A stretch of 64,000 bases of DNA from a virus. The position numbers were made by a program, and so were the translations under genes. Positions 61,033-63,996 of this stretch are shown here, one piece after another. The notes beneath the pieces are model-generated. The model was given only the letters and a program-made list of their open reading frames with translations, ran no database searches and was not told the origin of the DNA. Positions within the stretch are counted from its first letter, which is position 1. Each line of letters begins with the position of its first letter. The stretch spans positions 123,488-187,487 of the IMG/VR virus record IMGVR_UViG_3300027896_005002; one strand, written 5' to 3'.

Positions 61033-62184
61033 TTAACGAAAATCTTTATTCATAACATGCATAAAAATCGTAAGAATATCTATTCTATTTAAATAATTAT
61101 CACAAATTTTCACACATAAATCAATAATCTTTTCAATCTTCGGACTTTTCTGCAATTTTGAACTCTTATACAAATCATCTAATTTAAGATCAACTTTTCT
61201 TGAATATTCTTCAACCTCTTCAAACGGCATTGAACCATTTCTAATTTCTTTCAGTTCCTCTGCATCAATGTTTGTTCTATCAACATTTACTTTTCCAGTT
61301 TCCATGATTTCAAGAGCCATGCGACATAAACGAATCAGATGCATTGCATGCTTAGTGTCGTACCCAAATTTTGCTTCTAAATCAGCTCTTTTAACATTTC
61401 TTGTTTTCTTCCAGTCTACAAATCTTTCCCATTCTTTTGAAGCATGATAAAATAAAAGTTCCTTTTCTGCTTCTGCAAGATATTCTTCTTTTATATATGA
61501 AGGTCCTAATGCTCGTAAAGTATTGGCTTGAGATTTAACACCAACCTGTAAATACTCAATAGCCAATTTACGTTTATTTTCAATAATATATTTTGTAAAC
61601 AATGGCATGATATAATCGGAATAAACACCGTCCAATTCAGCTAAAAAATCTTCTTTACTATCTGCAATAAAAAAATCACCTATAGTAGAATATACAATAG
61701 CTTTTAATTGAGCTGTTGGAAAGGTTGATGTCGGTTTCAATCCAAAATCAACTCTTTCAGGTTTTTCTTTTGGTGGATCTAACAAAAATTTCCGATGTGT
61801 TTTAATACGTTCTAATTGTGCGATCGCATACCCTGCAAACGTATATCTACATTTTTTACTAACAAATAAATCTCTATTTTCTCGTAACAGGTCCCAATGT
61901 TTGGTTGTTCTGATGATGCATCGTTCAGGCATCCAAAGTAAGTCCATCATATTTGGATTGTTGTCCGCGATTAGTGCAACAGCTTTTCTGATATCGTAAA
62001 TAGTTTTGTCTTCGTCGGGATAATCAGAAAATTGTTCAAAACGTCTCATACTGTAGAAATATTCTTTTCCTGGAATCATGACACCGGCTTTATCAATGTC
62101 AGAAAAAGAATTATTTGTGCCGTAGGCTTGTGATCCAACTACAGTTTCAAAAATAGTTCGTTTATCTACATATTTATGATCCAT
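61033..62184 (-). CDS. Pol-beta-superfamily nucleotidyltransferase (RlaP / Nuc-transf-like)
   Basis: VVGSQAYGTNNSFSDIDKAGV matches the GS...D.D minimal nucleotidyltransferase motif. The 383-aa size is typical. Confidence 0.45.
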   Translation of the reverse strand: MDHKYVDKRTIFETVVGSQAYGTNNSFSDIDKAGVMIPGKEYFYSMRRFEQFSDYPDEDKTIYDIRKAVALIADNNPNMMDLLWMPERCIIRTTKHWDLLRENRDLFVSKKCRYTFAGYAIAQLERIKTHRKFLLDPPKEKPERVDFGLKPTSTFPTAQLKAIVYSTIGDFFIADSKEDFLAELDGVYSDYIMPLFTKYIIENKRKLAIEYLQVGVKSQANTLRALGPSYIKEEYLAEAEKELLFYHASKEWERFVDWKKTRNVKRADLEAKFGYDTKHAMHLIRLCRMALEIMETGKVNVDRTNIDAEELKEIRNGSMPFEEVEEYSRKVDLKLDDLYKSSKLQKSPKIEKIIDLCVKICDNYLNRIDILTIFMHVMNKDFR

Positions 62185-62188
62185 TTTC

Positions 62189-62377
62189 TTATTGTCTTTT
62201 CTGTTTAAGCATTTTTAATAATTTTTCAAGTTCAACATTAGCAATATAAAACATTGAAATAGCAACACCACCAAGAGCCATTGATAATGGAGTATTATTC
62301 CATTGACTGATACCTTGCACACCGCATGCAACACCAACAATCGCATAAAGAAACATTTTTATTGTAATGAAAATCAT
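62189..62377 (-). CDS. small membrane protein
   Basis: 62 aa with two transmembrane segments. Confidence 0.3.
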   Translation of the reverse strand: MIFITIKMFLYAIVGVACGVQGISQWNNTPLSMALGGVAISMFYIANVELEKLLKMLKQKRQ

Positions 62378-63090
62378 ATTTGTTTTAGCCTTGCTAAATT
62401 GTGTTTTTCTCTCAATTCAATACCATATTGTTTAAGTTCTTCAACCAAATCCATAACATCCTTTACTGTGGGTTCAGGAAGATTATGTGATTTACTATCG
62501 GCACCCAAATTTAAGAAATGAGGATGAATATCACCAATCCAACTTGCCAAAGTTTTAACATCAAAGGCTAAAACTGGTTCAATTGTTACAAACAATTTGA
62601 AGTTCATTGGCATTCTACTACTAACATGTCTCATAGACAACCATCGAGATTCAGGTATTGGTGCTTCACTAATGCCATCAATAATTCTATTTGTTTCAAT
62701 CGTTGTGCCCAAAATACTATTTGGTGGAAATTTATCCAAATAGTTTAAATATCGTGATGGATTTTTTGTCTGAAACACATAAGTGTTTTCAGGCCATACG
62801 CAACAATGAGCAATTATTCTATTTATCCATGCTTCAGATACAGCATTTGCAAATAAATCATTCATATATTCAATGAAAATCGTTTTTGTGTCTTTAAATC
62901 CTCCATAACAGACTTCAAATTCATGCTCAAACAACGACAGAGGTCCACAATATTTTGACGGTCTTCCTGAAACTGGATGATCCACATAACAATACTTACA
63001 TTTGTGTGGACATTCGCCGCCTAAATGTTCATGCATATGCGTGACCCAAGGATACATGTTCGAGCCAGTTTTATTTTTCTTTAAAGCCAT
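62374..63090 (-). CDS. radical SAM domain protein
   Basis: GGECPHKCKYCY (CxxxCxxC). The start is set at MALKKNK, which has an AGGAGG SD. Confidence 0.45.
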   Translation of the reverse strand: MALKKNKTGSNMYPWVTHMHEHLGGECPHKCKYCYVDHPVSGRPSKYCGPLSLFEHEFEVCYGGFKDTKTIFIEYMNDLFANAVSEAWINRIIAHCCVWPENTYVFQTKNPSRYLNYLDKFPPNSILGTTIETNRIIDGISEAPIPESRWLSMRHVSSRMPMNFKLFVTIEPVLAFDVKTLASWIGDIHPHFLNLGADSKSHNLPEPTVKDVMDLVEELKQYGIELREKHNLARLKQI

Positions 63091-63372
63091 AATTAACCTC
63101 CTAAAATTAGAGCTTTTGCAGTAGGCCCTTTTGTTACCGTAAAGTATATGCACTCGTAGTTTACTTGTCTTATAGACATAGATAACGGAACCTACTGCAG
63201 AAACTCTTTATAACTTTTTTAACGATCTAATTATTCCACAATGACAACTCATATATCTACTCATCGTAAGTATATAAAACCTGTCTATCTCGACATTCAT
63301 TTTTTTTGATGACATTAGCATCAACTTCTGATGTTTGTAGTTTGTTTGATTCTGATGAATTTGAATTCATGT

Positions 63373-63996
63373 TCAATCCTCTCTAATAAAGACATGTTGT
63401 TCGACATATTGTCGATCTTTGGAAAAAATTGGTATATTAAAATCTTTTTCACCATTTATAACACACCAACCGCGTTTTCTATGAACCGGATAGTCATTAA
63501 AATTGATACCTTTTTGAGAAAATAACATTTCCTGAATTTGTTTACAATTCTTTTTGTGAAGTTGCTTATGTGAAAAATTCTCTTGGCCTGCACTTTGTAT
63601 CGCATTTCGTGTCGCATCTTGTTGACGCCATAAAAAATAATTGCAAACTTCATCTTGCGGCATTGAAAATGCTCTGCTATCAAAGCATACATTTTCATGA
63701 CATATTGATGAAAAAACTACACTTGCTCTTGCTGCAGATATTGAAACAATTTTATTAATTTCGTAACCAAACCATCCTTCTGTTGTAATTTTTCTATAGT
63801 CAGTCAATAAAAAACTTATTTCATCACTTTGCGAATAAACGAATTCACATCCTTGAATTTCATGATAAAGTGCAATAGCCGTACTTACCATTGTATCAAC
63901 AAATACTTCTGACCATTTTCTTCCAAACATTCTTTGTGTAAATGTATGAAATGCTCGACCGTCGATGCGTATGATTACCGGTATACGTCGAGGCAA
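63373..63996 (-). CDS. Thg1-like 3'-5' nucleotidyltransferase (tRNA-His guanylyltransferase family); N-terminus may extend beyond the window
   Basis: IIRIDGRAFHTFT ... VYSQSDEISFLL matches the Thg1/TLP catalytic motifs. Confidence 0.6.
   Translation of the reverse strand: MPRRIPVIIRIDGRAFHTFTQRMFGRKWSEVFVDTMVSTAIALYHEIQGCEFVYSQSDEISFLLTDYRKITTEGWFGYEINKIVSISAARASVVFSSICHENVCFDSRAFSMPQDEVCNYFLWRQQDATRNAIQSAGQENFSHKQLHKKNCKQIQEMLFSQKGINFNDYPVHRKRGWCVINGEKDFNIPIFSKDRQYVEQHVFIRED

Follow-up and report, generated by a model that had tools for sequence, protein, structure and literature searches.

Gene content and origin of the locus

The sequence analysed here is a 64-kb stretch of virus record IMGVR_UViG_3300027896_005002 (hereafter the window), the last 3 kb of which are filled by four open reading frames (ORFs) on the minus strand, encoding a Thg1-like protein (TLP), a radical S-adenosylmethionine (radical-SAM) protein of the DUF5131 type, a small protein of 62 amino acids (aa) and a Pol-beta nucleotidyltransferase of the RlaP family. 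The Thg1-like gene is cut by the end of the window, which holds positions 63373..64000 of it; the full gene extends over 64056-63373, with its start codon 56 nt past the window end. A gap of 282 nt separates it from the radical-SAM gene (62374..63090, 238 aa), whose stop is overlapped by 4 nt by the 62-aa ORF (62189..62377), a putative two-transmembrane (two-TM) protein with two hydrophobic segments, and the RlaP gene (61033..62184, 383 aa) starts 4 nt past this small ORF. An ATP-dependent RNA ligase of the Rnl5/DraRnl type, with an N-terminal oligonucleotide-binding (OB) domain, is encoded 43 kb away from this cluster at 16924..17979, and a protein with an RNA recognition motif (RRM; Pfam RRM_1, E=7e-17) at 56344..56646, both likewise on the minus strand. 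A preliminary description of the window had joined these genes, apart from the 62-aa two-TM ORF, which it overlooked, into an RNA end-repair set. All five of its domain calls (Thg1-like, Pol-beta nucleotidyltransferase, radical-SAM, Rnl5-like ligase and RRM) were upheld by searches with hidden Markov models (HMMs) and Pfam, with Pfam scores above the curated cutoffs for RlaP, DUF5131 and Thg1, and its coordinates are right overall; the exceptions are the start of the radical-SAM gene, which we place at 63090, where AGGAGG stands ahead of the start codon, and the truncation of the Thg1-like gene by the window end.

A metagenome contig in ENA, ERZ27247850:k141_2484546 (415,903 bp), carries both the RlaP and the ligase proteins verbatim. 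Locus L001, which follows this contig for 10 kb in the upstream direction from RlaP, adds 8 kb past the window end and so brings the sequence covered to 72 kb, with ~340 kb of the contig outside. The window is most likely a part of a huge phage genome (~416 kb), because it exhibits prokaryotic translation signals (Shine-Dalgarno-like motifs ahead of 58% of ORFs, against 13% in the background), short ORFs (median 117 aa, with a coding share of 85%) and many ORFs that match phage families (PHROGs); no structural genes were found in its 64 kb. Domains resembling the Major Vault Protein (MVP), AP2, WGR and papain hint at a giant eukaryotic virus, but such an origin is ruled out by the same frequency of Shine-Dalgarno-like motifs and the same median ORF length.

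The Thg1-like protein, RlaP and the RNA ligase

The full Thg1-like gene (L001 8129-8812) encodes 227 aa. The part of it within the window (63373-64000, minus strand) matches the Pfam families Thg1 (PF04446, E=3.9e-20) and Thg1C (9.5e-5), and the protein belongs to phrog_4717 (E=1.2e-73). Among proteins of known structure it matches the TLP of Bacillus thuringiensis from end to end (BtTLP, PDB 4KGK, E=6.6e-57) and, less closely, an archaeal TLP (5AXK, 3.4e-15), while the values for the yeast, Candida and human Thg1 are ~1e-7, which places it nearer to bacterial and archaeal TLPs than to the eukaryotic tRNA-His-specific Thg1. In the alignment to BtTLP the residues E14, R30, D32, S77-D78-E79 and D126/R128 of the phage protein are conserved; BtTLP E12, R28, D30, D75, E76 and R131 correspond to E14, R30, D32, D78, E79 and R128, so that the three catalytic carboxylates of the palm domain (D30, D75 and E76 in BtTLP) are all present, as D32, D78 and E79. 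The two proteins thus share the metal-binding carboxylates and the arginines that bind the nucleoside triphosphate, and are similar in size (227 aa in the phage protein, 245 aa in BtTLP). They differ in that the present protein is phage-encoded and has an arginine (R46, with K47 next to it) at the position of K43, the lysine of BtTLP that contacts ATP in the activation step; in BtTLP, the K43A substitution decreases adenylylation about 10-fold and leaves guanylylation unaffected. TLPs of this type add nucleotides to a template in the 3'-5' direction and can in this way repair tRNAs of many identities that are truncated at the 5' end; in protist mitochondria, TLPs perform 5' editing of tRNAs. 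On the strength of its sequence relationships, the phage protein is predicted to be such a repair-type TLP, i.e. a template-dependent RNA polymerase working in the 3'-5' direction.

The nucleotidyltransferase is a member of the RlaP family (PF10127, E=4e-19, 69.7 bits, cutoff 23) and matches phrog_388 with 8e-56 across residues 6-368. Its nucleotidyltransferase motif GS...DID (VVGSQAYGTNNSFSDID) is intact and can be read straight from the sequence, the general pattern G[GS]...DxD being present as 'GSQAYGTNNSFSDID'; a search of PDB chains with the RlaP sequence gave no detectable match. RlaP enzymes extend damaged RNAs at the 3'-OH by one or two nucleoside monophosphates, and heavily damaged tRNA does not regain its aminoacylation without them (bioRxiv 10.64898/2025.12.29.696909). 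No RNA ligase was detected beside the RlaP gene, the nearest one being that 43 kb off; in related loci such as L146, an Rnl5-type ligase co-occurs with RlaP.

This ligase (16924-17979) matches the equivalog family TIGR02306 (RNA_lig_DRB0094) with 175.7 bits, where the cutoff is 151, and comprises an OB fold (PHA02142, residues 9-94) and an RNA_ligase domain (PF09414, residues 163-335). It aligns with NgrRnl (5COT, E=1.9e-20), including the motif I lysine (EKIEG vs VKLDG). Ligases of the Rnl5 type, such as DraRnl and NgrRnl, seal 3'-OH/5'-phosphate nicks in duplex RNA.

Recurrent neighbours of Thg1-like genes in phages

The preliminary description regarded a Thg1-like gene in such a context as unusual. 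At least 580 viral contigs in IMG/VR carry one, these proteins form a family of their own (PHROG 4717), and the proposal that a phage Thg1 may repair RNA in response to host defences dates from 2010 (PMC2904730); Thg1 was listed again in 2021 as a sporadic member of the RNA-repair complement of jumbo phages, next to RlaP, RNA ligases and CCA enzymes (Iyer, Anantharaman, Krishnan, Burroughs and Aravind, PMC7824862). After removal of near-duplicates, 63 distinct phage Thg1 loci were obtained; the neighbours within 10 kb were clustered, the cluster representatives were annotated with Pfam, and the search was repeated with HMMs. As a control we used 80 phage loci centred on DUF5131 homologues, with a similar total length (1.30 vs 1.25 Mb).

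RlaP is present in 25/63 Thg1 loci and in 2/80 control loci, an excess of about 16-fold (Fisher p=8e-9). A kinase of the AAA_33 family resembling polynucleotide kinase (PNK) accompanies Thg1 in 21 of the 63 loci, a CCA-adding enzyme in 16, an NAD-dependent DNA ligase in 15 and MazF/PemK in 14, each of them being found in 0/80 control loci, and an Rnl5-type ligase was identified in 10/63 Thg1 loci as compared with 1/80 in the control. The close relative L003 (50% identity) has the direct order RlaP-Thg1-x-CCA, Thg1 and RlaP directly adjoin each other in L120 and L135, and L156 shows the order PNK-RlaP-x-x-Thg1. Phage Thg1 genes also often abut tRNA arrays: in L168 a distance of 26 nt separates the end of the array from Thg1, and L172, L117 and L178 are alike. 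Across 58 related loci, tRNA-His is missing from the ~85 tRNA genes that lie next to Thg1. In bacterial genomes, the known adjacency of TLP and kinase was recovered in Paenibacillus, and RlaP was found nearby in 11/80 loci.

Because of this recurrent phage neighbourhood, as compared with the control loci, the Thg1-like protein, RlaP and the ligase plausibly take part in one function, the repair of RNA (tRNA) ends; the proposal of the preliminary description that these three enzymes serve RNA repair in the phage thus finds support in the enrichment of these families around phage Thg1 genes, and the biochemistry of the families fits as well. The neighbour counts bear on the physiological role of bacterial and phage TLPs: they strengthen the view that these enzymes repair RNA ends generally rather than mature tRNA-His, and they point to concrete combinations of enzymes for reconstitution.

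Two further features were observed around phage Thg1 genes. Genes for transfer-messenger RNA (tmRNA) and for tRNAs with a CTA anticodon (amber suppressors; tRNA-Pyl according to ARAGORN) occur within 10 kb of the Thg1-like gene in several loci (L005, L006, L012, L155, L164; L129, L153). In four loci, a LAGLIDADG homing-endonuclease gene is located directly upstream of Thg1 (L008, L009, L010 at 8903-9979 and L013 at 1883-2959), and the N-terminal 34 codons of Thg1 appear to be split off in all four, which may reflect insertion of an endonuclease or an intron in Thg1.

The radical-SAM gene and the RRM protein

The preliminary description had also counted the radical-SAM gene and the RRM protein as parts of the repair set. 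The domain call for the former is confirmed: the ORF as called (62374-63153, minus strand) matches DUF5131 (PF07505) with E=3.6e-10 and 40.2 bits against a cutoff of 28.9, its CX3CX2C motif reads CPHKCKYC, and in 34 homologues the cysteines C27, C31 and C34 show no variation. The family is strongly conserved, with ~60% identity among hundreds of metagenomic members. An AlphaFold2 model of the protein (pLDDT 91.6) exhibits a partial TIM-barrel, for which Foldseek returned spore photoproduct lyase and lipoyl synthase (LipA) as the closest solved folds, along with other radical-SAM enzymes. In RadicalSAM.org this DUF5131 subgroup, with which the phage protein shares the above-cutoff Pfam match, the CX3CX2C motif and the fold resembling spore photoproduct lyase, is listed as the uncharacterised megacluster 5-2.

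The neighbourhoods of its relatives point elsewhere than to RNA repair. Thg1 was found in 0 and RlaP in 2 of the 80 homologous DUF5131 phage loci, and DUF5131 in 0 of 92 other Thg1 loci, so that a conserved Thg1-DUF5131-RlaP operon, considered as a candidate, found no recurrence in either set. The genes that recur next to DUF5131 in phages encode N6/N4 DNA methylases (13 loci), C5 DNA methylases, PAPS-reductase-like proteins, terminases and integrases, the DNA methyltransferases being the most frequent; a few homologues in large phages lie 3-6 kb from RtcB, Thg1+PTH2 or RlaP. The position of the radical-SAM gene between two RNA-repair genes is therefore atypical for the DUF5131 family, and its tight coupling to RlaP in the phage contig is real yet idiosyncratic. 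As to the RRM protein, it has no PHROG match, and a homologue was found in 0/92 other Thg1 loci. Since family-wide neighbours and associations give no link for either of them, the radical-SAM and RRM proteins cannot be counted as members; the place of the former in the repair set is doubtful, and both, together with the 62-aa membrane ORF, are left out of the proposed repair components. The 62-aa ORF has one weak family match (DUF4190, E=0.018) and no homologues in other Thg1 loci. In PADLOC the radical-SAM protein obtained only weak family-level matches, to the candidate systems PDC-M30B and PDC-M41B; a reading of the repair enzymes as a defence system was discarded, as PADLOC is silent for the Thg1-like protein, RlaP and the ligase.

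Proposed function and alternative explanations

We propose, with a probability of roughly 55%, that the huge phage encodes a capacity for repair of RNA ends, probably those of tRNA, through the Thg1-like protein, RlaP and the Rnl5-type ligase. In this scheme, the Thg1-like enzyme would use ATP or GTP to activate a 5'-phosphate end and would refill the missing 5' nucleotides by copying the 3' strand of a helix, for instance that of the acceptor stem, RlaP would add one or two nucleotides onto a shortened 3'-OH end, and the ligase would close 3'-OH/5'-phosphate nicks in duplex RNA. Acting jointly, the three enzymes could restore tRNAs or other structured RNAs that are trimmed or nicked in the course of infection, e.g. 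by host nucleases, and would in that case serve a counter-defence purpose. Classical anticodon nucleases yield ends with 2',3'-cyclic phosphate and 5'-OH; the set fits such ends less well than ends with 3'-OH and 5'-phosphate or trimmed helices, which suit the predicted activities.

Several observations weigh against this proposal. The 72 kb covered contain no kinase/phosphatase, no CCA enzyme, no tRNA gene and no identifiable target of a host nuclease. Other phage Thg1 genes have PNK-like kinases, Metallophos and HD proteins among their neighbours; HMMs for these had no match in the window, L001 or L101 at E<=0.01, and the region was also negative when scanned for Rfam families, tRNAs and terminators. 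The missing functions could be encoded in the remaining ~340 kb of the contig. The Thg1-like and RlaP genes are separated by the 282-nt gap and by an unrelated radical-SAM gene, and the distance of the ligase gene is such that its position lends no support to its membership. The distances between RlaP and Thg1 in other phages show no clear skew towards adjacency (7 at <=2 kb, 10 at 2-5 kb and 8 at 5-10 kb); being near-uniform, they indicate a shared genomic module and not a strict or fixed operon. Besides, most of the control loci belong to smaller phages, and accessory genes are clustered in phages in any case.

The near-uniform distances inside the 20-kb neighbourhoods would also be expected if the Thg1-like, radical-SAM, RlaP, ligase and RRM genes were uncoupled accessory genes that came together by chance in a variable region. 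It agrees with such an explanation that the order Thg1-DUF5131-TM-RlaP was seen in no other locus, that the closest Thg1 relatives, L103 (63% identity) and L182 (64% identity), are without a nearby RlaP, and that a TnpB element adjoins the RlaP gene; however, we consider it unlikely, as few genes recur near phage Thg1 as often as RlaP does, far above the control, and several direct Thg1/RlaP adjacencies are independent of each other. A housekeeping role, i.e. maturation or quality control of phage or host tRNAs by 5' editing and 3' completion in the course of a lengthy infection cycle, with no host nuclease involved, is conceivable, though on the less likely side: the tRNA arrays beside phage Thg1 genes (L168, L172, L117 and L178), the frequency of CCA-adding enzymes among the Thg1 neighbours and the editing of tRNA 5' ends by TLPs of protist mitochondria speak for it, whereas RlaP and PNK-like kinases typify damage repair rather than maturation, and neither the window nor the sequence beyond it contains a tRNA gene.

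A true tRNA-His guanylyltransferase activity of the Thg1-like protein, with addition of G-1 to a tRNA-His of the phage or its host, is most improbable in spite of the name 'tRNA-His guanylyltransferase' in the PHROG and GenBank annotations, given that it is far closer to the repair-type 4KGK than to eukaryotic Thg1 (6.6e-57 vs about 1e-7), that tRNA-His is missing from the tRNA genes adjacent to Thg1, and that G-1 of bacterial tRNA-His is normally encoded in the genome. Another way to group the genes is to regard the radical-SAM, TM and RlaP ORFs as a unit of their own, in which the DUF5131 enzyme would act on RNA ends, e.g. by de-blocking them before extension by RlaP. The three ORFs are translationally coupled (4-nt overlap, 4-nt gap), the closest fold of the radical-SAM protein is that of a nucleic-acid repair enzyme, spore photoproduct lyase, and the few homologues of large phages near RtcB, Thg1+PTH2 or RlaP could be explained in the same manner, but RlaP is absent from 78/80 homologous phage loci and Thg1 from all 80, and the recurrent DNA N6/N4 and C5 methyltransferases and PAPS reductase-like proteins are a pointer to DNA, which makes such a unit quite unlikely. 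That the DUF5131 enzyme acts on damaged RNA ends at all, for instance by radical removal of a lesion or a blocking group, is a very doubtful conjecture; if true, it would provide the first function for an uncharacterised radical-SAM subgroup and a new chemical step in RNA repair.

Comparison with known RNA-repair systems

The repair set proposed here from the Thg1-like protein, RlaP and the ligase resembles the sets of jumbo phages (PMC7824862), with which it shares RlaP, an RNA ligase, the sporadic Thg1 and the proposed role against host attack on tRNA. It differs from them in that tRNA genes, a kinase, a phosphoesterase and a CCA enzyme were not seen in the present 72 kb, and in that the published analysis stresses RtcB and ligases of the Rnl1/Rnl2 types, while the present ligase is of the Rnl5/DraRnl type. 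In the TLP loci of Bacillus and Paenibacillus, a PNK-like kinase is the typical neighbour (PMC2904730), in place of which the present locus has RlaP. The RtcB-RlaP-RtcA operons of Pseudomonas (bioRxiv 10.64898/2025.12.29.696909) likewise place a RlaP nucleotidyltransferase in the context of RNA repair, but the present RlaP is a member of phrog_388, a family of phage proteins, its C-terminal region is longer, and neither RtcB nor RtcA adjoins its gene.

The preliminary description had compared the set to Pnkp/Rnl1 of phage T4. The analogy is loose: common to both is the idea that a phage supplies its own enzymes for healing and sealing broken tRNA, and T4 also has a member of the RlaP family, NrdC.11, but a 5'-kinase/3'-phosphatase was not found in the present window or the 8 kb beyond, the present ligase is a sealer of duplex nicks with an N-terminal OB domain and not an Rnl1, and the refilling of 5' ends predicted for the Thg1-type enzyme has no counterpart in T4. 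The interpretation of the set is essentially the published one, as this kind of phage RNA-repair toolkit has been already described. The sole distinctive trait of the locus is the pair of genes for the radical-SAM and the small membrane protein between those for the Thg1-like protein and RlaP, the relevance of which for RNA repair is improbable; the present locus is one more example of such a toolkit, with an atypically placed radical-SAM gene, and poses no new question by itself.

Other genes of the region

Upstream of the Thg1-like gene, past the window end, lie two ORFs of 185 aa each (L001 6966-7523 and 7553-8110, with gaps of 29 and 18 nt), for which only sub-threshold matches were obtained, to Methyltransf_24 (0.0014) and TerB (0.001), and no homologues were found in other Thg1 loci. 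On the other side of the cluster, a TnpB gene (59074-60312, plus strand; OrfB_IS605 and Cas12f1-like TNB domains), whose stop overlaps the start of a 235-aa ORF by 4 nt, converges together with this coupled ORF (to 61016) on the RlaP gene. The 235-aa ORF has weak matches only (PIN_6 0.008, GapS1 0.003, PD-T7-5 3.5e-5), and no omega-RNA and no match to an Rfam family were found at the TnpB element (59074-61016). Positions 56083-59021 contain a tandem family of ORFs with the shared N-terminal motif MKH(L/I)AxIQxEF(V/I)K...HP(x)S(K/R)R, one member of which matches DUF5661 and another, weakly, WGR.

The surroundings of the RNA ligase gene (10651-19600) encode a class-II glutamine amidotransferase, a COOH-NH2 ligase, a GGACT-like cyclotransferase and a GmrSD_N protein, and past the window end (L001 4344-6710) there are genes resembling ornithine/diaminopimelate (DAP) decarboxylase and saccharopine dehydrogenase, reminiscent of polyamine synthesis; the genes of the two regions together might serve base hypermodification or conjugation of peptides or polyamines. 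A pair of ORFs resembling ATP-dependent ligases, both matching phrog_114, is located at 7232-7819 and 8410-9549 on the minus strand: one is a bare adenylyltransferase of 195 aa (DNA_ligase_A_M 3e-13, with weak matches to capping enzymes and RNA_ligase) and the other a fusion of DnaJ and ligase domains of 379 aa. A stand-alone receiver (Response_reg) protein of 120 aa (55524-55886, plus strand) and a cytidylyltransferase-like protein with a weak MazG region (50001-50930, minus strand) may be involved in nucleotide/NAD metabolism. Besides two more radical-SAM proteins, the genome region encodes a protein with the metallo-beta-lactamase fold (Lactamase_B_2, 29 bits); the three genes are at L001 430-1320, L001 1408-2112 and, in the window, 24304-25350 (minus strand). 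Finally, an 821-aa protein encoded at 30747-33212 (minus strand), without a PHROG match, contains a Major Vault Protein shoulder domain (7e-21) and a Vault_3 repeat (7e-10), which are unexpected in a phage.

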